A stretch of 64,000 nt of DNA from Patescibacteria group bacterium (GTDB taxonomy: Bacteria; Patescibacteriota; Microgenomatia; UBA10105; UBA927), in NCBI GenBank assembly GCA_035510735.1, contig DATKGN010000010.1, positions 27,814 to 91,813 of the forward strand, in the 5' to 3' direction. The notes below the pieces were generated by a model, which did not search any database, was not told where the DNA came from, and was given only the letters and a program-made list of their open reading frames with translations. Shown here in pieces: positions 17,231-46,430 of the stretch. Numbering within the stretch: the first letter of the stretch is position 1; the number at the start of each line of letters is the position of its first letter. A program made the position numbers and the translations under genes.

Positions 17231-17302
17231 GAGAGATTAGAGCTTAGGGTTTAGAGCTTAGTAAATTTCTTACTAAACTCTAATGCGCTAAACACTATAC
17301 TC
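17231..17302. repeat. TAGAG/CTCTA palindromic element (copy 2)
   Basis: 'gagagattagagcttagggtttagagcttag...ctaaactctaatgcgctaaacactatactc'. Confidence 0.6.
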
Positions 17303-17310
17303 TATTTTAT

Positions 17311-17521: not shown

Positions 17522-17896
17522 ATGGAAAAGTCCGTATTTAACTTCGAGAGACTCACGGTATACCAACGTGCATTAGCATTCGCCTTGAACATTTATTCAC
17601 GTACACAAAAATGGCCGCGGGAACATCTTTTTGGTTTAACAGATCAACTAAGAAGAGCATCTTTATCCATTCCGTTAAATATCGCTGAGGGGTATAGTAG
17701 GTCGCGAAAAGACTTTCAGCATTTTTTGACTCTATCACGGGGATCCTGTTTTGAATGTGTTCCGATAATAAAACTAGCGGAGTCTCTCACTTTGCTTACT
17801 TCAAAAGAAGCTGATATGTTTTATAATGAATTAGAGGAAATTGCTAAGATGCTTAGTGGACTACGGAGTTCGCTATTGAAACAACCTAAACTCTAA
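17522..17896 (+). CDS. four-helix-bundle protein (23S rRNA IVS protein family)
   Basis: 'DQLRRASLSIPLNIAEGYSRSRKDFQHFLTLSRGSCFEC'. Bracketed by TAGAG-family repeats on both sides. Confidence 0.8.
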   Translation: MEKSVFNFERLTVYQRALAFALNIYSRTQKWPREHLFGLTDQLRRASLSIPLNIAEGYSRSRKDFQHFLTLSRGSCFECVPIIKLAESLTLLTSKEADMFYNELEEIAKMLSGLRSSLLKQPKL

Positions 17897-17935
17897 AACC
17901 CTAAGCTCTAATCTCTAATGCTCTAAACTCTAACT
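17897..17935. repeat. TAGAG/CTCTA palindromic element (copy 4, short)
   Basis: 'aaccctaagctctaatctctaatgctctaaactctaact'. Confidence 0.5.
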
Positions 17936-31361: not shown

Positions 31362-31394
31362 CATTGGCGAAGAAGAAGCGGTGAGATATAATGA
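31362..31394 (+). promoter_or_regulatory. candidate promoter for secE-nusG
   Basis: 'TTGGCG' - 17 nt - 'TATAAT', then a GAGG SD before ATG 31403. Confidence 0.3.
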
Positions 31395-31402
31395 GGTATT
31401 GT

Positions 31403-31618
31403 ATGGATAAACCAAATACGCCATCGATCCCAAATGTATCACCGGTCAGATTCTTAAATGAAGTAGTCGCTGAACTTAAGCGCGTCACCTGGCCGACACG
31501 CGAAGAGTTAATCAAGCTCACGACAGTCGTGATCGCGATTTCAATTCTCGTCGGTGCATTCATCGGCGGATTGGACGCACTTCTCGTTCAAGTACAAAAA
31601 ATAGTCTTTACACGATAA
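31403..31618 (+). CDS. secE: preprotein translocase subunit SecE
   Basis: 'FLNEVVAELKRVTWPTREELIKLTTVVIAISILVGAFIGGLD' is the SecE pattern. Immediately precedes nusG. Confidence 0.75.
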   Translation: MDKPNTPSIPNVSPVRFLNEVVAELKRVTWPTREELIKLTTVVIAISILVGAFIGGLDALLVQVQKIVFTR

Positions 31619-31620
31619 CT

Positions 31621-32244
31621 ATGGCAGACCAAACAACAGTTCAGGAAGAAAAGAAAACAGAAGTAGCTCACCCTGCGGCCCCACCGATTATTGAGGAAGC
31701 TAAACCGCGCGTCGCCCCCGCCAATGCAAAATGGTACGTTGTGCACACATATTCAGGCCATGAAAACAAAGTCTCCACAAATTTGAAGCAGCGCATTGAA
31801 ACGATGAAATTGGCTGATAAAATCTTTGATATCGTCGTACCAACCCGTAATATCGTGACAGTGAAGCACGGTAAAAAGGAAGAACAGAAGGAAAAGATCT
31901 TCCCGGGGTACATTCTCGTCAAAATGGTGCTTGATGACGAATCCTGGCTCGCTGTGCGGACTACACAAGGCGTAACGGCATTCGTAGGCGCCGGCAATAA
32001 ACCAACACCAATCTCAGAATCCGAGGTAGCCACAATCCTGAAGTTCATGCAGATGGAAGCGCCGAAATACAAAACGTCCTTCTCTATGGGTGAAGCGGTG
32101 AAAATTGTTGACGGGCCGTTTGCCGACTTTTTGGGTACGATTGACGCAATTGATGAAGAAAAAGGCAAAGTGAAGGTGTTGGTCTCAATATTCGGCCGCG
32201 AAACGCCGGTTGAGCTAGATTTCTTACAAGTATCAAAATTATAG
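31621..32244 (+). CDS. nusG: transcription termination/antitermination factor NusG
   Basis: NGN domain 'KWYVVHTYSGHENKV' and KOW 'GEAVKIVDGPFADFLGTIDAID'. Confidence 0.9.
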   Translation: MADQTTVQEEKKTEVAHPAAPPIIEEAKPRVAPANAKWYVVHTYSGHENKVSTNLKQRIETMKLADKIFDIVVPTRNIVTVKHGKKEEQKEKIFPGYILVKMVLDDESWLAVRTTQGVTAFVGAGNKPTPISESEVATILKFMQMEAPKYKTSFSMGEAVKIVDGPFADFLGTIDAIDEEKGKVKVLVSIFGRETPVELDFLQVSKL

Positions 32245-32457: not shown

Positions 32458-33759
32458 CTATAGCGATTTATAGTAGACGTACGCGCCGAATCCTACGGCC
32501 ACAAGGACCATGATAAGGATGATCCATCCCCATCCGAAGCCGCCTTTGGCGGACGCGATGACAGTGAATGATTGCTTCACCTGACCCTGACCGTCCGCGA
32601 GCTTTGCGACAACAAGAAGATCTTTTTTACCTGCTGTTAATGGTTTTGTCGGCCTCCACGTCCATTTTCCTGCTGAGTCTGCGATAACCTCACCGTTCAC
32701 GCCATCCGGTAATATGGATATATCGATCGTGGCGCCGGGCTCGCTAATGCCGGAGATAGTCGGTGTATCGTTCGTCTCACCTTTACCATTCGTGAATGTC
32801 GACACAGACAACACGATCGTGCGCCCTGAGACAATGGGAGTCGGCTCAGCTACGGAGGGCACAACCGTCAAATTACCGCCGGTTGAGCTGTTGCCGCAGA
32901 TACAGGACGATTCCCCGGAACAGAATGCGCTACGGCATACTTTACCTCCGGTTAATTGAGTCACACAAACAAGTCCACCCGGACAATCCAAATTATCGAC
33001 ACACGTTTGCCCGCAGGCGCTCAATATATAGAACGTCGGCGTGGGCGTCATGGTCGGCGTATCCGTCGGCGTATTGTAGTTGTAATAATATGTGGTCGGC
33101 GTATTGTAGTAATACGTTACCGGTGTATCAGTCGGCGCACAGGAACAACTGGTGTCGCTAAGACAATTCGAATTTCTACAACTTCCTGACGATCCAACGA
33201 TTCCGCTTGAAGAATAACAGACATAGCCGTTCTGGCAATTCGTCGGCGGATTAGTTGAGGGATTGCAGGTCGAATTACATCCGACCGTTACCGGAGTCGG
33301 TGTACTCGTCGGCGTATCAGTGTTGGGTGGATTGGTAGTCGTCGGATTTGTTGTCGGGTTTGTCGTTGTTGCCGGCGCCACGCACGGACCGGAATACGTA
33401 TTTCCTGCACAAGCGCTCATGTCTGTCGTCCAGTGCGCTCCAAATCCCGGACAGCAATATTGCGCGCCACCGCAAAGCCCCACACGACCTGCTCCGTTAC
33501 ACAGTTGTATATCCCCATCCGGCTCTGCGGGACAGTTCGTGAAATTCGTAATCTGCCACATGCTGCCGTTTTGACACTGATTGCAGCTGGCGGGATTACA
33601 CTTTGAGGCTAAATCACGAATTTCAGTCGTATGGGATGAAGCAGCGACAAGTACAATAAGTCCGATTAATAATGAAAACAGAAGGAGAACAGGTCCCCAA
33701 TTAAACCAAATGCCGGTTCGGCGGATACTTCTATTATGTCGTCTTTTTGCCATAATCAC
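32458..33759 (-). CDS. Pro/Thr- and Cys-rich surface protein with N-terminal signal/TM and C-terminal TM anchor
   Basis: 'TTNPTTNPTTTNPPNTDTPTSTPTP' linkers, 'NTPTTYYYNYNTPT' repeats, C-terminal 'GWGWIILIMVLVAVGFGAYVYY'. Confidence 0.5.
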   Translation of the reverse strand: MIMAKRRHNRSIRRTGIWFNWGPVLLLFSLLIGLIVLVAASSHTTEIRDLASKCNPASCNQCQNGSMWQITNFTNCPAEPDGDIQLCNGAGRVGLCGGAQYCCPGFGAHWTTDMSACAGNTYSGPCVAPATTTNPTTNPTTTNPPNTDTPTSTPTPVTVGCNSTCNPSTNPPTNCQNGYVCYSSSGIVGSSGSCRNSNCLSDTSCSCAPTDTPVTYYYNTPTTYYYNYNTPTDTPTMTPTPTFYILSACGQTCVDNLDCPGGLVCVTQLTGGKVCRSAFCSGESSCICGNSSTGGNLTVVPSVAEPTPIVSGRTIVLSVSTFTNGKGETNDTPTISGISEPGATIDISILPDGVNGEVIADSAGKWTWRPTKPLTAGKKDLLVVAKLADGQGQVKQSFTVIASAKGGFGWGWIILIMVLVAVGFGAYVYYKSL

Positions 33760-33970
33760 CTTCTATGATCACGCATATTTCATCCTTTTGCAAGGGCGTA
33801 TTTGCCTCACTCTTGCCAATAGCGGCATTGTTATGATATAGTTCAACTTACTTCGTCCGTCGGAAGACTCATGAAGGAGAAACCGGGATTTTGTTTGGGT
33901 TTCGATCGTAAAGTAAGACTGACTTCAAAAGCATCTTCTTTCTTTCGCACCACTCCCCGATTTTTAGTCA

Positions 33971-34052
33971 AGAGCTTAGAGCATTAGAGTGTAGAGCTTA
34001 GTATTTCTAAACTCTAAACCTAAACTCTAATGCCCTAATTTACTAAACCCTA
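33971..34052. repeat. TAGAG/CTCTA palindromic element (copy 5)
   Basis: 'agagcttagagcattagagtgtagagcttag...ctaaactctaaacctaaactctaatgccctaatttactaaaccctaact'. Confidence 0.6.
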
Positions 34053-34056
34053 ACTT

Positions 34057-34485
34057 ATGGTCGCAAAAAAAATCAAAACAATTATCAAGTTAAACCTCAA
34101 AGCCGGTGAAGCGACGGCAGCCCCTCCGGTCGGACCCGCGCTGGGACAGCACGGACTTCCGATCATGGAATTCGTCAAAGCCTACAATGAAAAGACGTCA
34201 AAACTCAAGGGTCAGATTATCCCTGCCGTCATTACCGTCTTCGTGGACCGGACGTTTACCTTTATCACCAAGCTTCCGCCGGTATCCGCAATGATCAAAA
34301 AGACACTGGGAATTGACAAGGGTGGCGGTAAAGCAGGCCGCGAAATTGCCGGAAAACTCACCAAAGAACAGGTAAAGCAAATTGCAACAGATAAATTACC
34401 GGACATGAATGCAAATACCGTTGAAGCCGCTATAAAAGTGGTTATGGGGACAGCGAGAAGTATGGGGATTGAGGTTGAAAGTTGA
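34057..34485 (+). CDS. rplK: 50S ribosomal protein L11
   Basis: 'KLNLKAGEATAAPPVGPALGQHGLPIMEFVKAYNEKT'. Confidence 0.9.
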   Translation: MVAKKIKTIIKLNLKAGEATAAPPVGPALGQHGLPIMEFVKAYNEKTSKLKGQIIPAVITVFVDRTFTFITKLPPVSAMIKKTLGIDKGGGKAGREIAGKLTKEQVKQIATDKLPDMNANTVEAAIKVVMGTARSMGIEVES

Positions 34486-34487
34486 TA

Positions 34488-34560
34488 GAGCTTAGAGCAT
34501 TAGGGCATTAGAGATTAGAAAAACTAAACTCTAAGTTCTAAATACTAAACTCTAATTTAT
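34488..34560. repeat. TAGAG/CTCTA palindromic element (copy 6)
   Basis: 'gagcttagagcattagggcattagagattagaaaaactaaactctaagttctaaatactaaactctaatttatt'. Confidence 0.6.
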
Positions 34561-34561
34561 T

Positions 34562-35419
34562 ATGGGCAAAATCAGAGTCGCCAAATTAGGCGACGAATCA
34601 CAGGAAAAAGAACAAAAACGACGTGCAGACGCACGGCGCCAAACGAAGGATTCCAAAAAATCCAAAGTAGAGGGCGTCCATCTCCATGGCGGTGAACGGG
34701 TCGCAGTCGTTGAGGGAACCGAAATCAGACCGGAGTTTAAAAAGCTTATTGAAGAAGTTGAAGGCACCGATACCGCTAAAGACGGGAAAAAAGCGAAAAA
34801 AGAACATAAAGCGCGGGTTCGCTCAAAGCGGTATGTTGAAAAAGCCTCGCTCATTGAAAAAAATAAATTGTATCCCCTTGGCGACGCCGTATCACTCGTC
34901 AAACAAACAAGCCTTACGAAGTTCGACGGCACGGTAGAGATGCATATCAATTTAAATTCGCAAATGTTAGGAGAAAAGAAAGATTTCCGCGGATCAGTCT
35001 CGCTTCCTCATGGCACGGGCCGCGAGGTCCGGGTCGTCATCGCCGATGATGCAGTAATAGCCGCCGTCACGGATGGAAAAATTGATTTTGATATTCTGGT
35101 TGCCCACCCCAGCATGATGCCAAAGCTCGCTAAAATAGCTAGAGTGTTAGGGCCCAAAGGGCTTATGCCCAATCCCAAAAACGGCACGGTATCTCCTGAT
35201 CCTGAAAAACGCGCAAAAGAGCTCTCTCACGGGCAGGTGAACTTTAAAACTGAACCGGATCAGCCGCTTATTCACTTATCCGTCGGCAAAGTATCGTTTG
35301 ATGACACGAAGCTCGTCGAAAACATTGAAGCGGTTGTCCGCGCCGTCGGCGCCAATAAAATCTCGCGTGCCACCCTCACCGCCACCATGGGCCCGGGTGT
35401 TAAAATCGCACTTTCGTAA
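34562..35419 (+). CDS. rplA: 50S ribosomal protein L1 with ~85-aa Lys/Glu-rich N-terminal extension
   Basis: Core 'LYPLGDAVSLVKQTSLTKFDGTVEMHINLN...GSVSLPHGTG' is L1. It is preceded by 'MGKIRVAKLGDESQEKEQKRRADARRQTKDSKKSK...KKAKKEHKARVRSKR'. Confidence 0.85.
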   Translation: MGKIRVAKLGDESQEKEQKRRADARRQTKDSKKSKVEGVHLHGGERVAVVEGTEIRPEFKKLIEEVEGTDTAKDGKKAKKEHKARVRSKRYVEKASLIEKNKLYPLGDAVSLVKQTSLTKFDGTVEMHINLNSQMLGEKKDFRGSVSLPHGTGREVRVVIADDAVIAAVTDGKIDFDILVAHPSMMPKLAKIARVLGPKGLMPNPKNGTVSPDPEKRAKELSHGQVNFKTEPDQPLIHLSVGKVSFDDTKLVENIEAVVRAVGANKISRATLTATMGPGVKIALS

Positions 35420-35468
35420 AACTCAACTTGCTATAGCAGCCTAAACCCCGTATAGTACGCTCCTATCT

Positions 35469-35888
35469 ATGGGCAATCCGCGGACAAACGGACAATTAAA
35501 GCGTGAGGAAACCGAAAACGCACTTATGACCATCATTGAGTGGCTAGCTGACCAAAACGAAGAGAAGTTCAGACCACGGACGCTTGAGGGTATATATTTC
35601 AAAGATCTAAAAGGAAGATCTCATCTCATATCATGGGCTAGATTTTCTGTAGAAAATCTAGAACTTCTACACAAGAGGCTTACGAGTGAATTGCGTGACG
35701 AACAGACGACCGGAGAAGATCGATTTACGTTTGGCACTATACGCAACTCACATGAAGATGTCCTCGGTTTAGCCTTTGCTCGTCCAAGCATCGCCCGGGA
35801 ATACGGTGCAAACAGCAAACTTCTCGATCATATGATCGCCGCAGAGGGAAATGTCACTCTCAAAGCCAGCTGTTCTAAGGAAACATAA
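35469..35888 (+). CDS. hypothetical protein (inserted between rplA and rplJ)
   Basis: 139-aa ORF, no recognisable domain. Confidence 0.4.
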   Translation: MGNPRTNGQLKREETENALMTIIEWLADQNEEKFRPRTLEGIYFKDLKGRSHLISWARFSVENLELLHKRLTSELRDEQTTGEDRFTFGTIRNSHEDVLGLAFARPSIAREYGANSKLLDHMIAAEGNVTLKASCSKET

Positions 35889-35955
35889 CAAATTGACCTT
35901 CCCCAATCTCTCCGCACTTGTCCCCCATCTTATAATTGACTATAGTGAATATAGT

Positions 35956-36519
35956 ATGATTGATACGCGCATCGTGCAGTCCCTCAAAGACTCAGCAAGC
36001 GTATTTGTGACTGAGTGCGTCAATAACCCCCAAAAGTGCGGACTCTCGCGGAGTGAAAAGAATTGGATGGAGGAATTAAGTAAAGTCTACCTCTGTGCCG
36101 AGCTTCACGTCGACCTCCCTGCCCATCCAACCCGCGAATTCCTGGAAAAAATCAGGAAAATGACGGAATTCGGCCACGACAGCGCCGTTACGACGCGTAT
36201 GATTCTCTACAGCGCCAATATCGCCTGCGAGAAGGATTTTGCTACCAACACTCCCGCCTATTTAGCCACGCTCGAGCACCACCAGGAGCACTGGAGCCAG
36301 AAACATGTTGAATCCCAGCATGCATATATACAAAAACGGTCGATAGAGGATTTCATGCAGGCGTATTTTGATACACCGGAATCAATATCAGAGCCCGAAC
36401 TCACGTTCTACCTCACTCTCTACTTTAAGCATTTTTATCGACTCCTCTACCAGTTTATGCTATTCTATACGCAGTCGCAGTCACCTGTTTACTATGGCAG
36501 AGGAAACCCAAAATCCTGA
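35956..36519 (+). CDS. hypothetical protein
   Basis: Track ORF 35851-36519. An internal ATG at 35956 (MIDTRIVQSL) avoids overlap with the upstream gene. Confidence 0.35.
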   Translation: MIDTRIVQSLKDSASVFVTECVNNPQKCGLSRSEKNWMEELSKVYLCAELHVDLPAHPTREFLEKIRKMTEFGHDSAVTTRMILYSANIACEKDFATNTPAYLATLEHHQEHWSQKHVESQHAYIQKRSIEDFMQAYFDTPESISEPELTFYLTLYFKHFYRLLYQFMLFYTQSQSPVYYGRGNPKS

Positions 36520-36655
36520 CAACGACGAAGCAAGGTTTGATAAATCCCGCAATATGACGGCCGTGCTTGAGCGCGCTCTGGAGGGAGCTGGGAAAATCGG
36601 CGCCAAACTCATAGACGCCGCAGGCGAAATCTTCAGCATGATTTTTAAACGGTAG
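36494..36655 (+). CDS. small hypothetical protein
   Basis: 'MAEETQNPDNDEARFDKSRNMTAVLERALEGAGKIGAKLIDAAGEIFSMIFKR'. Weak. Confidence 0.25.
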   Translation: MAEETQNPDNDEARFDKSRNMTAVLERALEGAGKIGAKLIDAAGEIFSMIFKR

Positions 36656-36718
36656 AGTCCCCTTTCTTGCATTTTCCAACCCTCCTTGTTATAAAGCCAC
36701 TAACTACCCGAACGTGAT

Positions 36719-37561
36719 ATGACCATCCAAGAACAAGCTGAATTAAAACGCGGAGCCCCCTCGCATGAAACTCCAACATTTGATAAGGAATCGGTCATTG
36801 GCGCTACTCGTGTCTTAATTGGCCAACTCGACGGTTTGAGGCAGTTTGCAGATCGCGAGAACCTTGACACCTCAATGGAAATCCTCACAAATCTCTTAGT
36901 GCGCGTGCCTCCCACGGAGGAAATCAGGGAATCGCTCACTGATTTTGTTACCAATGTGCCGGATAAATCAAATGAGAAGGAAAAAAGACATTATGTCCGG
37001 ATGCTCAGATTCCTGGCTCCATTTGTCGACTCCGCAAGCGTACTTAACGGTTTAAATCATGCAAAAAGATATCCGGGATTCAACAAGTTCAAAGATGCAC
37101 TCCCGATCCTCATACAGCTAGATGATAAGTCAGAGGCAATCTCAGCGATGCAAACATTAGCAAAAAATACGAACAGGTGGTCCCGAGAATTTGTATCAGT
37201 AGCAACCGTTTTTGAAGGGTTAGCCTATATTCACAACGAAGATGCGGTCACTATGCTCCAAGAAGGACTCACGATAACAAACCAAAAAATGGAAACAATT
37301 GAACGCAAATCGGCCTACACTGCAAAAGACGGTGATGATATGCACGCGTATTCCTATATCCGTGAGTCCATAATATCCGCGCTTGCCCATAATAACGACC
37401 CTCATGCGCTGGCCGTATTAACACAAGAACTTGAAATTGTGACTAATCAGATAGTCGATTATAAGGAAGCAAATAAAAGAGTTTTCGAAGTAAATCATAC
37501 AACGAATCTGCTAGAGATAGTCAGAGCACTGATGGCGAAGGCTGATGGGCGCGCCGCTTGA
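36719..37561 (+). CDS. hypothetical alpha-helical repeat protein
   Basis: 280 aa, helical-repeat-like composition. Overlaps the next ORF by 17 nt in another frame. Confidence 0.45.
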   Translation: MTIQEQAELKRGAPSHETPTFDKESVIGATRVLIGQLDGLRQFADRENLDTSMEILTNLLVRVPPTEEIRESLTDFVTNVPDKSNEKEKRHYVRMLRFLAPFVDSASVLNGLNHAKRYPGFNKFKDALPILIQLDDKSEAISAMQTLAKNTNRWSREFVSVATVFEGLAYIHNEDAVTMLQEGLTITNQKMETIERKSAYTAKDGDDMHAYSYIRESIISALAHNNDPHALAVLTQELEIVTNQIVDYKEANKRVFEVNHTTNLLEIVRALMAKADGRAA

Positions 37562-38303
37562 TCAAAAAACGTTTGACGCGTGTATGCGGGCGTTCTCGTT
37601 GGGTAACACAGAAATAACGAATATCGTCGGGTATTCGTTGCTCCCATCCGGCCCGCTCGATCATGACGAAGCAACATTTGAACTTCGCCCATGGGACTAC
37701 CAAGAATGTGATCTGTTTATGGCGGAGTTGGCAATACTCCATAATCAGGGTTCAGAGAGCGACAAGCGTCTTGTCAAAAATAAAACGCTCTACACAAACA
37801 TGGTTGAGTTTGTCCCTTATAACCACCGCGCACACGATTTAGACGTTATAGCCCGATACATCGGGATAAATAATAAATCATTCTTACCTGAAGCGGTATT
37901 CAATACTCCAATGCCTACCCTCCAAAACATCGATAACCTTATGATGAATAAAGCTATTGTAAAACTTCCTAAAATAATCGAACCCATTTGGTATCAAAGG
38001 TTTGGTCCAATAAGCATGATAACACTGCATAACCCTCATGCATCCGTTGAGGATCGTATTGGCGCGGCGATGGCAATAAAAGATAAATATGTGCGAAAAC
38101 CCGTGGAAAGCATTGAGAGGTCACTTAGATTCGCAGAATTAGTGGGTGAGCTTTTTAAGAACAATCCTGATCTTGTAAAAACTGCTGTGGCAGCAGTCTG
38201 TGTGAGCATTGTGCCCGGACGGACCGCAGAACTGCTTAACAACTTCTCCGGTGATACGGCCATTAAGCGCGGTATTTTGTGGGCACTTGAACAATCGAAG
38301 TAA
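37545..38303 (+). CDS. hypothetical alpha-helical protein
   Basis: 252 aa. Possibly the continuation of the previous ORF after a frameshift. Confidence 0.4.
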   Translation: MGAPLDQKTFDACMRAFSLGNTEITNIVGYSLLPSGPLDHDEATFELRPWDYQECDLFMAELAILHNQGSESDKRLVKNKTLYTNMVEFVPYNHRAHDLDVIARYIGINNKSFLPEAVFNTPMPTLQNIDNLMMNKAIVKLPKIIEPIWYQRFGPISMITLHNPHASVEDRIGAAMAIKDKYVRKPVESIERSLRFAELVGELFKNNPDLVKTAVAAVCVSIVPGRTAELLNNFSGDTAIKRGILWALEQSK

Positions 38304-38380
38304 AACGAATATAATACACTAATCCTAAAGACCGTGCGCCATTCGATAAAGGATATAAGCCGCACCGAGGGAAATTAGTA

Positions 38381-38448
38381 AGAACTTAGGGCGTAGAGCA
38401 TTAGAGCTTAGAAAAACTAAACTCTAAGCACTAAACCCTAAACTCTAA
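38381..38448. repeat. TAGAG/CTCTA palindromic element (copy 7)
   Basis: 'gaacttagggcgtagagcattagagcttagaaaaactaaactctaagcactaaaccctaaactctaaca'. Confidence 0.6.
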
Positions 38449-38474
38449 CATTCCCTCATCAAGAGGGATTTTTT

Positions 38475-39020
38475 ATGGAACACCCATCGAAAGGGACGCC
38501 GAAAAAAGTAAATACCGTAACCGAACTAACGGAGAGGGTCGCAAAGGCCAAATCCATGATCGTCGTGGAATATCAGGGTGTCAAACACAAGCAATTTGAA
38601 GAGCTCCGGAAAACCCTCAGGAAGACGAATGCGGAATTTGTCGTGACGAAAAACAGACTTTTCAAACGCGCGCTCGGCGATAAATCAAAATTACTGGAAT
38701 CACTTCTCGAACAGCCGACGGCTACCCTTTTCACCTATGGTGACGAGGTTGCCCCCCTTAAAGATCTCATGAAGTTTTTCAAGACTGTGGGATTCGGCAA
38801 AGCCAAAGGCGGGCTGTTGGGCACAACCGTATTAAGTGACACGGATGTAACCCGGCTTTCCACCCTTCCCACCCGAGAACTTCTCCTCGGCAGTCTGGTA
38901 CGGCAGCTTAACGCGCCGATCCAAAGCCTGCACTACGGACTTCAATGGAATTTGAATAAGTTAGTTTGGGCGATAAATAGTATAAAAAATTCAAAATCCG
39001 AAGCACTAAATTCAAAATAA
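38475..39020 (+). CDS. rplJ: 50S ribosomal protein L10
   Basis: 'AKSMIVVEYQGVKHKQFEELRKTLRKTNAEFVVTKNRLFKRAL'. Confidence 0.85.
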   Translation: MEHPSKGTPKKVNTVTELTERVAKAKSMIVVEYQGVKHKQFEELRKTLRKTNAEFVVTKNRLFKRALGDKSKLLESLLEQPTATLFTYGDEVAPLKDLMKFFKTVGFGKAKGGLLGTTVLSDTDVTRLSTLPTRELLLGSLVRQLNAPIQSLHYGLQWNLNKLVWAINSIKNSKSEALNSK

Positions 39021-39029
39021 TATCAAAAT

Positions 39030-39115
39030 TCAAATATCGAATGTTTTGAATTTAAGATTTGTTCATTTAGATTTATTTTGGATTTAGAGTTTTGAAATTA
39101 GGATTTGTTTATTGA
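39030..39115. repeat. 'aattcaaaa/ggatttgg' low-complexity repeat, related to the in-frame repeats inside the O-antigen ligase gene
   Basis: 'aaaattcaaatatcgaatgttttgaatttaagatttgttcatttagatttattttggatttagagttttgaaattaggatttg'. Confidence 0.45.
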
Positions 39116-39134
39116 AAGGTGGTGACAACAAATT

Positions 39135-39524
39135 ATGGCAAAATTATCCAAAGATGAAATACTAGCGGCAGTAGGTGAAATGACCGTACTCGAACTGGCA
39201 GATCTCGTGAAAGCACTCGAGGAAAAATTTGGTGTCACCGCAGCTCCTGTCGCCGTTGCCGGTGCCGCACCAGCAGCCGCAGCAGATAGCGGAGAACCCA
39301 AAGAGGAACAAACAGTATTTAACGTCGTTCTGGCTGCCGCAGGCGCCAACAAAATCGGCGCTATTAAAGCGGTCCGTGAACTCGTTCCGACGCTCGGTCT
39401 TCAGGAAGCAAAGACACTCGTTGAGAGCGCTCCCAAAGAAGTCCTGACAGGCGTTAACAAAGCAGCAGCTGAGGAAGCCAAGAAAAAGCTGGAAGCCGCA
39501 GGGGCCAAGGTGGAACTAAAGTAA
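39135..39524 (+). CDS. rplL: 50S ribosomal protein L7/L12
   Basis: '[34 protein letters not shown]...[12 protein letters not shown]'. Confidence 0.9.
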
Positions 39525-39925
39525 TAACTGAAGCAAAAGGAAGTCCGTGGTCAGTTTTCGAGTTTTCGAGAAATTACTGCCACGGATCCCGCATGAGCGC
39601 TCTTTCGAGTCGAGGATGTAAACCTCGCGAGAAAGTAAGCTTCGTGCGGGACGAAAAAGAAATTAGAGGCCGCGGGCGCGAAGGTCGAGCTCAAATAAAA
39701 AATACGATAAAACCCAATTCATATTGGGTCGAGATCCCGACGAATAATATGAGTCGGGATAAGAGCTCAAATAAGAATAAAATAGAAATCCGGCGAAGCC
39801 GGATTCGAGATTCTGATGAGATTTACGAATCAGAATGTGAGCTCAAATAATTATAAAATAAAGTCCAGCTTAGCTGGACCGACATCCCGATAAGTTATAC
39901 GAATCGGGATAAGAGCTCAAGTAAT
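39525..39925 (+). repeat. array of hairpins each followed by a re-coded copy of the rplL 3' end plus stop codon
   Basis: 39669-39698 'gccgcgggcgcgaaggtcgagctcaaataa' encodes AAGAKVELK-stop, the same as the rplL C-terminus, with different codons. Then 'gagctcaaataa' at 39763 and 39839 and 'gagctcaagtaa' at 39913 (ELK-stop). Each is preceded by a hairpin such as 'atcccgac..gtcgggat', 'attctgat..atcagaat' or 'atcccgat..atcgggat'. Confidence 0.75.
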
Positions 39926-41872: not shown

Positions 41873-42226
41873 TCACTTAGAAAGACTTGAACGGAGTGCC
41901 GTAAGCATCTTCGATATCTCAAATATTTTCTGTTTTAACTCTTGAAAATCACGTTCTGCTATAAGGCGTTGATCCTTTGCAATAGTGATAATTGGTACGC
42001 ACTCATAGCAAGATCCCCTGGCAATTGAAAGAAAATGCTGAAAGTCTTTTCCTGTTCTACTGGACCCCTCGGCAATATTTAGAGATATAGATAAAGCGGC
42101 GCGATTTAGCTGATCCCCTAAACTAAATCGCAGTTGTGAGGGCCATTTGCCCGTTAAAGTGAATATTTTGTTTGATAGAACAACAGCCTCCTGATAAACC
42201 AACAGATTTTCAAATCGAAATTCCAT
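41873..42226 (-). CDS. four-helix-bundle protein (23S rRNA IVS protein family)
   Basis: 'MEFRFENLLVYQEAVVL...GDQLNRAALSISLNIAEGSSRTGKDFQHFLSIARGSCYEC'. Flanked by 'gttacttagttacttgg' / 'ccaagtaac' inverted octamer repeats (41825-41880 and 42232-42262). Confidence 0.75.
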   Translation of the reverse strand: MEFRFENLLVYQEAVVLSNKIFTLTGKWPSQLRFSLGDQLNRAALSISLNIAEGSSRTGKDFQHFLSIARGSCYECVPIITIAKDQRLIAERDFQELKQKIFEISKMLTALRSSLSK

Positions 42227-42267
42227 AGTGTTACTAAGTAACCAAGTAACTTGCGTTGCTCGCGTTG

Positions 42268-43086
42268 CTATATTGACACTTTCGCTTCCCCAAACTCCCC
42301 TATTTTTTTCATCGATCGTGCATGACCCCACACAAAATCAAACATCTGCTTCTGCATGGAGGCAAAGTCGGGATTCACAATCTCCACGCAGAATATATCG
42401 TCGTGTAAATAGTGATATTGGGCCGTCACATCGTTATAAATAACAATCTCGGAGGTAATGGCAAGTTCTTTGGGGTCCATATACCGCGGCGTCCAGAATG
42501 TAACCGCAGCTGCTTTGATTTTCGTCCACGCCTCCATATGGGCGATGTTGGTGAGCTGGAGCGTATGAATTTTATGTTCAACCAGTTCCGCTCTCACTTT
42601 TTCACTGAATTCCTGGGGAAGGAAGGCGGTCATGCTTGTGGCCACTTCATAAATCCGAAGCTCTCCCCGGGCCCTGATCGAATTCCATGTGACGTGCTTT
42701 AACCCGTCAATCCCATGATGGTAATAAACCTTTGATCCCGTCATCCCCCGCCTGTGGAGGGCCGCAAGCTCCTCAAATACAGCAGGCATGGAGGCTTTGA
42801 GGCTGTCCAGATCGCTTTGCCTCTGGGCAAGGATGAGTTCCATCTGCTCATACGGGCTGGCCGTGAACTTGAGACCAAGCGTATCGAACTTCTGGGTGAC
42901 AAGTCCGTGAGCCTCCAGCTTGTCCAAAAGCCGATACACGCGTGTTCTGGCCATATGGATCTGACGGCTGATCTCAAGCGCTGAAAGCGTGCCTTTTTCC
43001 AGTAAATACAGGTAAATCTCCACTTCGGGAGTGGCAAGGCCCAAGCGGGTCAACGTGCGGGTGAGTATGTCTGTTTGATCGGACAT
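42268..43086 (-). CDS. TrmB-family transcriptional regulator (sugar-responsive type)
   Basis: N-terminal 'LGLATPEVEIYLYLLEKGTLSALEISRQIHMARTRVYRLLDKLEAHGLV' TrmB HTH, plus a C-terminal effector domain. Confidence 0.7.
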   Translation of the reverse strand: MSDQTDILTRTLTRLGLATPEVEIYLYLLEKGTLSALEISRQIHMARTRVYRLLDKLEAHGLVTQKFDTLGLKFTASPYEQMELILAQRQSDLDSLKASMPAVFEELAALHRRGMTGSKVYYHHGIDGLKHVTWNSIRARGELRIYEVATSMTAFLPQEFSEKVRAELVEHKIHTLQLTNIAHMEAWTKIKAAAVTFWTPRYMDPKELAITSEIVIYNDVTAQYHYLHDDIFCVEIVNPDFASMQKQMFDFVWGHARSMKKIGEFGEAKVSI

Positions 43087-44968: not shown

Positions 44969-45241
44969 TTATCGATATAACTGGTTATGTGTACCGAGAG
45001 CAACAAAGTATGCAAACGGACCATCGATAAGCGAATCAACTTCTCGATATATTGCCCTCCAATCGCCGGTAATATTAATGCTGCGACGCCCCATGTATTC
45101 CCCAACGAGTTTATGATTTCTTAAAAGCGGATGATAGGGGTTGGAAACAAACAAATCTAACCGGATACTAACTACCCGTTGGACATCATGGGGCGAATTC
45201 TGTAATTGTTTATCAAATTTCGGACTAAACTTAATCCTCAC
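44969..45241 (-). CDS. type II toxin, RelE/ParE family
   Basis: 'HKLVGEYMGRRSINITGDWRAIYRE' matches the RelE/ParE core. Confidence 0.65.
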   Translation of the reverse strand: MRIKFSPKFDKQLQNSPHDVQRVVSIRLDLFVSNPYHPLLRNHKLVGEYMGRRSINITGDWRAIYREVDSLIDGPFAYFVALGTHNQLYR

Positions 45242-45250
45242 CTTATCAGA

Positions 45251-45529
45251 TTATCGCTTGCGATGTAACCACGCAATGGCATCTTTCGCATTATCAAAGA
45301 CAGGCGATCCTTTATCGTCTTTCAAATCCTTGTCAGCCTTCTTGAGAATCCGCGCGAGATACGGCGTAGGTTCGTAGGATTCTGAAAACTCTATAGTCTT
45401 TGTTTTCACCAAACTGCGCAAATAGGCATTAACGAGTGAACTAAGAGTAAACCCCAAGGACTCTGCTACCTTGGCAGCTTCCCTTTTCACTTTCGGATCA
45501 GTACGGACATTCAGGATTGTGGTCCTCAT
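45251..45529 (-). CDS. type II antitoxin, RelB/DinJ (RHH) family
   Basis: 'MRTTILNVRTDPKVKREAAKVAESLGFTLSSLVNAYLRSLV'. Immediately upstream of the toxin. Confidence 0.6.
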   Translation of the reverse strand: MRTTILNVRTDPKVKREAAKVAESLGFTLSSLVNAYLRSLVKTKTIEFSESYEPTPYLARILKKADKDLKDDKGSPVFDNAKDAIAWLHRKR

Positions 45530-45569
45530 ATATACAAAGTATATACATTGTATATACACCTGTCAAGAG

Positions 45570-46430
45570 CTACAATGCAACCTTCTGGAGTTCTTCCGCC
45601 GCAGTCGCAGGGTCAACGACGTTGACGTTAAGGCCGGTGCCAAGCTCAAAGCCCGCACGATGGATGAATCGGGGTACGATCCGGATAAACCAGCTTTGCC
45701 CGTGGGAAATATAATAATTGTACATAAAGGGGTCTGTCTGACGATCCTTCGGCCGGATCACGGAATCTCGCCAGATATATTCAATCTTTTGGAGCGCGCG
45801 CTGGAGAACGCCTGCAAAATCGGTCAAGTGATTTTCCGGCAGGTCACCAAACATGTCTCCCTCCCCTTTTGGCGCAATCCATACTTCATAGGGCCATTGG
45901 GAAAAATCCGGACAATACATCACGAAATTGGTGTCTTCCTCGACCACATTATTGATGGGCTCCCTGGAGAGTGAATCGAGGTTAATCTGTTTCGGCACAA
46001 CAACAAGCTGTGAGTGGGGGTGGGCAAGACTTGCGCCTGCGTGGTAGCCGTGGTTACAAAATATAAGCACCTGGCCGTCATTCTCGTGCGCCCGAAAGCG
46101 ATCGCGGTATGCGGAGAGAATCCGCGTGACTTGATCTAGCGGCAGCTTATCCACATCATCCGTGTGACTTGTACTATGGATGAATACTTCATGCGTATCG
46201 GTGATCGGGAATTTATTGGGAACTACGCGGACTTGCCATCCCGGTCCATCCTTCTCGCCCGTGCCGATGCGGTATACCTCTGGCGGCGTTGACTTCTCAT
46301 TGCCCGCACAAAAAGGGCATCCCTTCACCGACACTACTGCGGGTTGGGCGGTTGAGTCAGGCCGTTTCGTACGCATGGGCGAGATAACCACCCACCGCTG
46401 CGTCTTCACATCAGGAACATATCTGGCCAT
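45570..46430 (-). CDS. galT: galactose-1-phosphate uridylyltransferase (HIT family)
   Basis: 'CPFCAGNE' zinc site and 'HGYHAGASLAHPHSQLVVVP' (HxHxQ). Confidence 0.8.
   Translation of the reverse strand: MARYVPDVKTQRWVVISPMRTKRPDSTAQPAVVSVKGCPFCAGNEKSTPPEVYRIGTGEKDGPGWQVRVVPNKFPITDTHEVFIHSTSHTDDVDKLPLDQVTRILSAYRDRFRAHENDGQVLIFCNHGYHAGASLAHPHSQLVVVPKQINLDSLSREPINNVVEEDTNFVMYCPDFSQWPYEVWIAPKGEGDMFGDLPENHLTDFAGVLQRALQKIEYIWRDSVIRPKDRQTDPFMYNYYISHGQSWFIRIVPRFIHRAGFELGTGLNVNVVDPATAAEELQKVAL

Follow-up and report, generated by a model that had tools for sequence, protein, structure and literature searches.

We analyzed a window of 64,000 nucleotides from a Patescibacteria group bacterium (GenBank assembly GCA_035510735.1, contig DATKGN010000010.1, positions 27,814 to 91,813), and all coordinates below refer to this whole stretch of DNA unless a relative is named. 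The subject of the analysis is a block of five open reading frames (ORFs) that lies on the plus strand between rplA and rplJ, the genes of the ribosomal proteins L1 and L10. The homologues of L1 place the host in Candidatus Gottesmanbacteria, within the Microgenomates and the candidate phyla radiation (CPR). The rplA gene (34562-35419, plus strand, 285 aa; Pfam Ribosomal_L1, E 8.7e-36) is the last gene of the rplKA unit, and rplJ (38475-39020, plus strand; Pfam Ribosomal_L10, E 8.6e-24) is the first gene of the rplJL unit. Between them we found O1 (35469-35888, 139 aa), O2 (35956-36519, 187 aa), O3 (36494-36655, 53 aa), O4 (36719-37561, 280 aa) and O5 (37545-38303, 252 aa), all on the plus strand. 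O2 and O3 share 26 nt, and O4 and O5, which are in different frames, share 17 nt.

The first-pass annotation of this DNA had described the same five ORFs as an uncharacterized cassette placed inside the most highly expressed operon of the cell, occupying the site of the L10 leader, bordered by palindromic elements and possibly serving the ribosome or translation. The positions of the ORFs between rplA and rplJ were confirmed, and Pfam identified the two flanking genes. Seven metagenome runs, each assembled independently, gave identical DNA (100%), so the sequence, including the frame change between O4 and O5, is not an artefact of assembly or sequencing. Among the samples with this strain are SRR8693976, SRR8676592, SRR8693975, JGI 3300023075 and ERZ27248486. 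The composition of the block is native, that is, its tetranucleotide distance stands at the 25th percentile of the slices of the window.

Coding status of the five ORFs

No significant match to any of the five proteins was obtained in Pfam, NCBIfam, PHROGs or PADLOC. The sequences of the PDB also gave no significant match, when profiles were used for O2 and for the joined O4O5 and single sequences for O1 and O3. A HMMER search with the concatenated proteins against 1.84 billion cluster representatives returned 12 matches in total; several of these were the window proteins themselves, and the remainder came from a handful of relatives. In a word-indexed search of 5.8 billion proteins, O4 retrieved nothing and O5 retrieved itself only. 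The viral contigs that were scanned contained no relatives of the block proteins, and the one additional metagenome locus that we found belongs to the sister species described below. We found no description in the literature of the block between rplA and rplJ or of any CPR L10 leader.

The window proteins were then compared by tblastn with 17 related Gottesmanbacteria loci, and their genomic contexts were looked up. The most useful reference was the locus of a sister species (L010), of which the L1 protein is 93% identical. The ratios of nonsynonymous to synonymous divergence (dN/dS) against L010, calculated by the Nei-Gojobori method, were 0.24 for O1, 0.05 for O2, 0.22 for O3, 0.19 for O4 and 0.37 for O5, compared with 0.04 for rplA and 0.09 for rplJ; because dS is near saturation these ratios are rough, though all of them are well below 1. 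The proteins of O1, O4 and O5 are 46-61% identical to those of the sister species, whereas the flanking proteins are 89-99% identical. The lengths and boundaries of the ORFs were nevertheless kept in L010 despite 40-55% amino-acid divergence. The isoelectric points (pI) of the window proteins are 4.9-6.1, that is, acidic to neutral.

Since dN/dS is well below 1 and the distribution is narrow without known families, we regard the five ORFs as real, lineage-restricted protein-coding genes. The earlier description of them as genuine and uncharacterized thus stood, because no housekeeping family was assigned to any of them and the dN/dS values of 0.05-0.37 do not lie near 1.

Promoter-like sites, the rplJ leader and the TAGAG hairpins

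The 3' end of the block is followed by a complete set of signals for rplJ. A consensus scan found a promoter-like site on the plus strand (TTGAAC-17-TATAAT, 38287-38315) whose -10 box, at 38310-38315, stands directly after the O5 stop. The core of an L10-type leader occupies 38321-38374 on the same strand; it has the form UCCU-AAA-GA-CC-stem ... stem-C-GA-GGGA, with an unpaired UAA and a tandem GA of kink-turn (K-turn)-like arrangement. The terminator scan then detected a terminator- or attenuator-like hairpin with a T-run at 38452-38474 (plus strand, hairpin 38452-38468), and the GAGGG of its 3' arm is the Shine-Dalgarno (SD)-like box of rplJ. Since promoter, leader motif and attenuator are intact and all lie 3' of the O5 stop, the block neither replaces nor interrupts the L10 leader, and the idea that it stands in the place of that leader has to be abandoned.

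The same layout was found upstream of rplJ in all Gottesmanbacteria loci examined, with equivalents in L008-L022, L089, L091 and L092. The distance between the -10 box (TATAAT or TATACT) and the leader motif does not vary among these loci, and the motif AUCCUAAAGACCGUAGG ... CCUACCGAGGGAA begins about 10 nt after the box. A long low-complexity hairpin follows in some species only, and a CCUCGCUUUUGGCGAGG-UUUUUU hairpin comes directly before the rplJ start codon. This attenuator is kept across the relatives as CCTCGCTTTTGGCGAGGATTTTTT-type hairpins. Each locus has one copy of the leader core (18 distinct sequences in all), located 5' of rplJ wherever rplJ is inside the fetched sequence. Its consensus structure contains 10 pairs, of which 3 show compensatory changes.

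An unpaired UAA and a tandem GA are the two hallmarks of the site recognized by L10(L12)4 in the mRNA and in 23S rRNA (PMC4538822). Judged by these structural features, the rplJ leader of Gottesmanbacteria would qualify as an autoregulatory leader of the L10(L12)4 type. It resembles the leader of Rfam RF00557 and of Bacillus subtilis (PMC4538822) in its location 5' of rplJ, in its UAA and kink-turn-like stem, and in the terminator hairpin with an SD-like 3' arm. It differs in that the region 33700-39700 gave no match to Rfam L10_leader (RF00557) at the gathering threshold or at E<=5, and in that a subset of species including this one carries the extra long low-complexity hairpin between the binding motif and the terminator. 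We consider it a candidate for a new ribosomal-leader model.

Promoter-like sites were also seen inside the block, all on the plus strand. The consensus scan found TTGCTA-17-TATAGT at 35428-35456, with 12 nt between its end and the start codon of O1, and TTGTCC-17-TATAGT at 35918-35946, with 9 nt between its end and the start codon of O2. A site recognized by eye 5' of O4 (TTGCAT-17-TATAAA, 36667-36695) is below the threshold of the scan and is a putative one. The hexamers of the O1 site are identical in L010, and its surroundings of about 45 nt differ by one base, although the O1 protein is just 47% identical there; both hexamers of the O4 site are also conserved in L010. The arrangement at O2 would be near-leaderless, and all three internal sites would imply very short leaders. 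We suggest that O1, O2-O3 and O4-O5 are each driven by a sigma-70-like promoter of their own with a very short leader, and that the signals of rplJ (promoter, L10(L12)4-type leader and attenuator) then follow unchanged.

With respect to the proposed location inside the most highly expressed operon, these data place the block elsewhere, between the rplKA unit and the intact promoter and leader of rplJ, and O1, O2 and O4 have promoter-like sites of their own. Accordingly, neither an operon nor the L10 leader would have been interrupted by the block. In Escherichia coli, rplKA and rplJL-rpoBC are transcribed from separate promoters (PL11 and PL10), and in Mycobacterium tuberculosis rplA and rplJ stand apart, with about nine unrelated genes (mmaA1-4, lipG, fabD2 and others) in the interval. 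The presence of genes at this boundary is thus nothing unusual in itself. The present locus is similar to those of both species in having separate rplKA and rplJL units, a promoter and an autoregulatory leader before rplJ, and tolerance of unrelated genes between the units; it is different in that the inserted genes are ORFans found only in Gottesmanbacteria, not metabolic genes, and in that the content of the spacer turns over among close relatives.

The palindromic elements built of TAGAG/CTCTA units do exist, as the first-pass annotation had reported, but they are not borders of the block. The left element (34486-34556, plus strand, delimited by repeat and fold analysis) is in the rplK-rplA spacer, 5' of rplA and 909 nt from O1, and the right element (38377-38450, plus strand) is inside the rplJ leader; the two share a 55-nt direct repeat of 89% identity. 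Because the hairpins are imperfect, a repeat search with a short loop limit missed them, and a dedicated scan for imperfect hairpins was needed. Similar hairpins were found at 17235-17305, 5' of rpmG (L33, 17311-17484), at 33970-34052, 5' of rplK, and, in a weaker form, at about 39040-39106, 5' of rplL. They precede all five of the ribosomal-protein genes seen in the window (5/5), and a half-element is located at 17880-17935, after a putative 23S_rRNA_IVP gene. The TAGAG hairpins are features of the 5' regions of ribosomal-protein genes, not cassette borders.

Hairpins of different units are present at equivalent positions in L010 and L092. At the position within the rplJ leader, a hairpin of different sequence occurs in L010, L009, L008, L018 and L092, and none occurs in L014, L017 and L021. 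The presence of hairpins of different sequence at the same position in relatives suggests a structural role at the RNA level rather than a dispersed selfish repeat. The hairpins may be a conserved RNA structure in the mRNAs of ribosomal proteins, with a possible part in the processing, stability or regulation of these mRNAs. As intergenic, imperfect palindromes of about 70 nt made of short repeated units they are similar to REP/BIME palindromes; they differ from these in being confined, within the 64-kb window and apart from the one half-element, to the 5' regions of ribosomal-protein genes.

The O2-O3 pair, the split O4/O5 gene and O1

The conserved core of the block is the pair of O2 and O3. 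The O2 protein is 94-95% identical in L010 and 62-64% identical in L009. Its profile retrieved 15 clusters from 5.8e9 proteins, none of which had a Pfam domain, and a Pfam search of all 16 O2 members gave no consistent family. The AlphaFold2 (AF2) model made from the alignment of 16 sequences is a confident all-alpha structure of eight helices, with a predicted local distance difference test (pLDDT) score of 89.9 and a predicted template modeling (pTM) score of 0.84. A Foldseek search with this model found nothing matching in the PDB (best E 0.42, TM-score <=0.29) or in BFVD (none with E<0.4). O2 is a new small protein family with no detectable relatives beyond its clusters.

Several identifications of O2 and O3 were considered and discarded. 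Likeness of O2 to heme-oxygenase/TenA-like proteins or to PhoU gave TM-scores of <=0.29 and probabilities of <=0.14. A di-iron or HEPN-type motif was suggested by conserved E, H and R residues, and the histidines are lost in P0011 and in other members. When the O2 profile was compared with PDB sequences, L17 was the sole ribosomal match and stood at chance level (E 0.38); neither O2 nor O3 matched a known family of ribosomal proteins or ribosome factors. The end of O2 offers a possible site of -1 slippage (C CCA AAA), which was rejected because O3 is in the +1 frame and cannot be reached by a -1 shift.

O3 encodes a small helical protein, and its start overlaps the 3' end of O2. Its orthologues in L010, L009, L091, L089 and L092 have 51-53 aa and overlap O2 by 20-29 nt, and on the P0024 contig a 62-aa ORF, of which the sequence was not readable, overlaps O2 at the position of O3. 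The dN/dS of O3 was 0.2-0.55 and below 1 in all of the 14 orthologue pairs, out of 15, for which it was computable, with dS saturated. In all loci for which both flanks were available (the window, L010, L009, L091, L092-94 and the P0024 contig), the pair is located between rplA and rplJ, and the other occupants of the spacer change. The order is rplA-O2-O3-rplJ in L091, rplA-68aa-O2-O3-128aa-rplJ in L009, rplA-675aa-O2-O3-120aa-rplJ in L092-94, and rplA-HATPase_c-86aa-PIN-O2-62aa-rplJ on the P0024 contig. On the short contig of L089, which does not include rplA, O2-O3 is directly 5' of the rplJ leader. The exception in context is a distant O2 homologue, P0011 (22-25% identity), which adjoins a DUF5671 membrane protein.

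O2-O3 was absent from most of the Gottesmanbacteria examined. In a rough two-protein neighbor-joining (NJ) tree of L11 and L1, the genomes with O2 fell into one subclade, which also included L008, a genome without O2-O3. We propose that O2 and O3 form a two-gene module that is inherited vertically and strongly constrained, that they are translationally coupled, and that their products, an all-alpha protein and a helical peptide partner, would act together.

As small, overlapping and co-oriented genes in a variable region, O2 and O3 are similar to bicistrons of type II toxin-antitoxin (TA) systems, and the relative on the P0024 contig has a PIN gene preceded by an overlapping 86-aa ORF in a VapBC-like layout. 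They differ from such bicistrons in that no toxin or antitoxin family was matched in Pfam, NCBIfam or PADLOC, and in that they show one context, vertical inheritance and strong purifying selection; the second gene here is a 53-aa peptide without a DNA-binding motif.

We also observed that the C-terminal motif of O3, G[ML]I[FL][KR]R, recurs in small ORFs of L014 (10858-11091, 77 aa) and L022 (14366-14608, 80 aa). Both ORFs are located directly 5' of the rplJ promoter, in genomes without O2. Small proteins of the O3 type may predate O2 and have a wider distribution.

The second unit of the block is O4/O5. Pairwise DNA alignment with L010 revealed an insertion of 7 nt on the plus strand at about 37540-37546 of the window. 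The insertion shifts the frame by +1, and O4 ends five codons later, at 37561. It also creates the ATG of O5 at 37545, which is preceded by GAAGG. The region of the split is identical in the seven independent metagenome assemblies. In L010 the gene is a single ORF of 524 aa, and O5 aligns to residues 275-524 of its product; a further fused homologue, P0010 (534 aa, 26% identity), is directly 3' of rplA in L088. We regard the fused form as the ancestral state on the basis of these homologues, with O4 and O5 as the N-terminal and C-terminal halves of the split gene. The earlier suggestion that O4 and O5 may be one frameshifted gene was correct as history, as the fused forms in L010 and P0010 indicate. 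In the present species, the insertion would have split the gene into two overlapping and possibly still coupled ORFs. The two halves may today be coupled ORFs or a recent pseudogene, and the seven assemblies, being identical, offer no polymorphism that would separate the two.

An AF2 model of the repaired O4O5 protein consisted of helical hairpins, with pLDDT of 80-95 at residues 20-250 and a mean pLDDT of 67. Foldseek returned generic matches to ARM, HEAT, importin and PP2A-A proteins with probabilities up to 0.99, a best E of 5.8e-3 and TM-scores <=0.35. In Pfam, HEAT_2 (13.7 bits against a cut-off of 27.7) and HEAT_PBS (11.6 against 20.9) were both below threshold at residues 213-236. The structural results agree with these sub-threshold matches, and we describe O4O5 as a probable alpha-helical-repeat protein. 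The helical-repeat appearance noted in the first-pass annotation was thereby supported for O4; the model of the O5 half is helical, with low confidence except at the C-terminus. The stacked helical hairpins of the model resemble the HEAT/ARM solenoids (HEAT_2, HEAT_PBS; importin-beta, PP2A-A), and the best Foldseek matches were designed ARM/HEAT repeats, importins and PP2A-A. O4O5 differs from these solenoids in that its sequence is far below the Pfam thresholds, no Foldseek match reached E<=0.001, and the gene is split here. Judging from the model, O4/O5 would most plausibly be a protein-binding scaffold.

A direct repeat of the 3' end of rplA (62 nt, 81%) stands on both sides of the O4O5-like gene in L088, at 69-130 and 1831-1892 of that locus. 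This repeat is the footprint of an insertion at the end of rplA. No duplicated rplA 3' end flanks the block in the window, L010, L009 or L091.

For O1, the sole relative is P0008 in L010 (46-47% identity), and L010 has an extra 155-aa ORF between O1 and O2. O1 appears to be a young, fast-evolving ORFan.

The rplA-rplJ spacer in relatives and the interpretation of the block

The spacer between rplA and rplJ is highly variable in the clade. It measures 95-230 bp in L019, L012, L013 and L008, where the promoter and leader come directly after rplA, whereas in L011, L014, L017 and L021 it is 370-500 bp long and includes small ORFs that are unrelated. L016 and L018 have a longer spacer (1.2-1.4 kb), L022 has the longest (4 kb), and L015 shows a rearranged rplA-rplJ region. 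Housekeeping genes amounting to 6.5-8.5 kb separate rplA from rplJ in Pacebacteria- and Shapirobacteria-like genomes. The spacer of L016 holds an IS200-like Y1 transposase and that of L022 a 1007-aa MutS_V/ABC-type ATPase, and a PIN toxin is found in L095 and on the P0024 contig, with a HATPase_c protein also among the spacer contents there. PADLOC gave P-loop-level matches only for these variable neighbors in relatives, and we discarded a reading of them as defence islands.

The whole block, O1 to O5, was found in the sister species only, and wider retention is limited to O2-O3, with O1 and O4/O5 present essentially in two species. With the exception of P0011, the distant homologue of O2, all occurrences of the block or of parts of it were in the rplA-rplJ spacer of close relatives. 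Neither att-like sites nor inverted or direct repeats directly flank the block, and Pfam and PHROGs detected no integrase, transposase or recombinase domain in O1-O5. The idea that the same cassette might recur elsewhere between the same repeats, which the first-pass annotation had proposed to check, was thus not borne out.

We consider it probable that the block consists of lineage-specific genes that accumulated at a plastic boundary, namely a conserved O2-O3 core, a split HEAT-like scaffold gene and a young ORFan, each unit apparently with its own promoter. That is, these Gottesmanbacteria-specific coding genes would lie in a spacer between separate rplKA and rplJL units, and this spacer would be, in the clade, a plastic landing place for lineage-specific and accessory genes. 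Clade-restricted genes of no known family are the norm in CPR, and insertions between rplA and rplJ have precedent.

Several points weigh against this interpretation. The interaction of O2 with O3, the scaffold role of O4/O5 and the use of the promoters are inferred, and the promoters were called solely by their match to a consensus. The terminator scan found no terminator-like site between rplA and O1 or within the block, and read-through from the strong rplKA promoter, hence co-expression with the ribosomal proteins, may occur. The O5 half of the O4O5 model is of low confidence except at its C-terminus, and the single subclade of the O2-bearing genomes comes from the rough tree of two proteins. 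Moreover, O2 is as tightly constrained as a ribosomal protein and keeps its position amid the turnover of its neighbors, and a role tied to the locus would fit this at least as well as vertical inheritance does.

The last point leads to the possibility that the block, or at least O2-O3, represents clade-specific ribosome or translation factors (stalk-associated factors, assembly factors or an operon regulator) that are kept at this site for co-expression. The pair occupies the same interval in all six adequately flanked contexts while its neighbors change, the dN/dS of O2 (0.05) is like that of a ribosomal protein, O3-like ORFs precede the rplJ promoter directly even where O2 is missing (L014 and L022), and no terminator was detected after rplA. 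This evidence is purely positional, though, and the same spot in relatives hosts a transposase, a PIN toxin and ATPases, so the ribosome- or translation-associated function proposed in the first-pass annotation has location in its favor and the unrelated occupants of that location against it. O2-O3 is also absent from most Gottesmanbacteria, including L008 of the same clade, and is thus not needed by a very similar ribosome; the pI values of 4.9-6.1 are unlike those of typical ribosomal proteins, and the distant homologue P0011 adjoins a DUF5671 membrane protein and no ribosomal genes. We think that this explanation is quite unlikely. Its narrower form, in which one subclade recruited O2-O3 either as a partner of the L1/L11/L10-L12 region of the ribosome or as a regulator of the neighboring ribosomal-protein operons, would explain why this pair alone is held between rplA and rplJ amid the turnover, and we regard it as rather improbable too. 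It is unlikely as well that the block is an accessory or defence islet acquired at a hot spot beside rplA, with O2-O3 as a TA-like bicistron and O1 and O4/O5 as conflict genes. The PIN toxin, the IS200-like transposase and the large two-P-loop ATPase in the same spacer of relatives would fit such an islet, as would the fast evolution of O1, O4 and O5 (46-61% identity against 89-99% for the flanking proteins), the small size and overlap of O2 and O3, and the insertion footprint of 62 nt around the O4O5-like gene of L088. On the other hand, O1-O5 have no significant defence or TA match in PADLOC, PHROGs or Pfam, no integrase or recombinase is present, and the rplA-end repeat is absent from the window, L010, L009 and L091. 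The composition is native, no relatives were found in viral contigs, and O2-O3 shows a single genomic context and vertical inheritance, unlike mobile TA modules.

Two further explanations concern the reading frames themselves. Programmed +1 frameshifting by the ribosome at the stop codon of O4 might still join O4 and O5 in a single protein, since O5 follows O4 in the +1 frame, neither half is interrupted, the seven assemblies all have the shift and an SD-like GAAGG is just upstream. The +1 slippery motif of the prfB type is CUU UGA C, and the site here, GCT TGA T, lacks a known motif of this type. The fused orthologues require no shift, the ATG made by the insertion together with GAAGG makes reinitiation or coupling a simpler explanation, and recent pseudogenization may also account for the split; we judge programmed frameshifting to be very unlikely. 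The idea that the five ORFs arose by chance or are decaying within a long spacer without coding function could draw on the lack of homologues outside a tiny clade and on the fact that most starts have no SD box. It is effectively refuted by dN/dS well below 1 for all five, by the conservation of lengths and boundaries in L010 at 40-55% amino-acid divergence, by the highly confident model of O2 and by the retention of O2-O3 across at least six lineages.

If the block is an accumulation of lineage-specific genes at a plastic boundary, it would follow a familiar pattern, in which the boundaries of CPR operons are filled with fast-evolving, lineage-restricted genes. The practical lesson is that adjacency between rplA and rplJ is not to be taken as evidence of one operon. 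O2, with its constraint at the level of a ribosomal protein, its confident fold and its constant, tiny overlapping partner, is a clean target for work on the structure and function of the "dark matter" of CPR. O4/O5 documents gene fission by a 7-nt insertion that supplies its own start codon. The comparison also reveals a Gottesmanbacteria L10-type leader that is not in Rfam and long hairpins in the 5' regions of ribosomal-protein genes, and we think that this leader and these hairpins are the more interesting by-products.

The remaining genes around the block are in the order secE (31391-31618), nusG (31621-32244), a Cys/Thr-rich gene on the minus strand (32458-33759), rplK (34057-34485) and rplA, with rplL (39135-39524) 3' of rplJ. 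The N-terminus of rplA (34562-34810, codons 1 to about 85) encodes a Lys/Glu-rich extension of about 65-85 residues. This extension is common to Gottesmanbacteria and a Woesebacteria relative, and homologues from other phyla align only from residue ~65-88 on. A conserved CUUCUUUCUUUCGCACCACUCCCCGA-like stretch is present 5' of rplK in the window (33860-33960), in L010 (5880-5920) and in L092 (about 2030-2060), and this stretch may serve the rplKA unit as a leader that binds L1.

Farther from the block, weak matches at 45429-46044 were considered as paralogues of O1, O3 and O2; they are antisense to a 286-aa minus-strand gene (45570-46430), or on or antisense to an adjoining toxin-like pair, and were judged to be due to chance. 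On the minus strand at 44969-45559, two adjacent small ORFs (45251-45559 and 44969-45241) look like a pair of an antitoxin and a RelE/ParE-type toxin when their translations are judged by eye. The translations of 17522-17896 and 41873-42331 (minus strand) are also alike by eye, and both are near clusters of ribosomal-protein genes; an ORF nested at 41873-42331 carries Pfam 23S_rRNA_IVP in the precomputed gene call.

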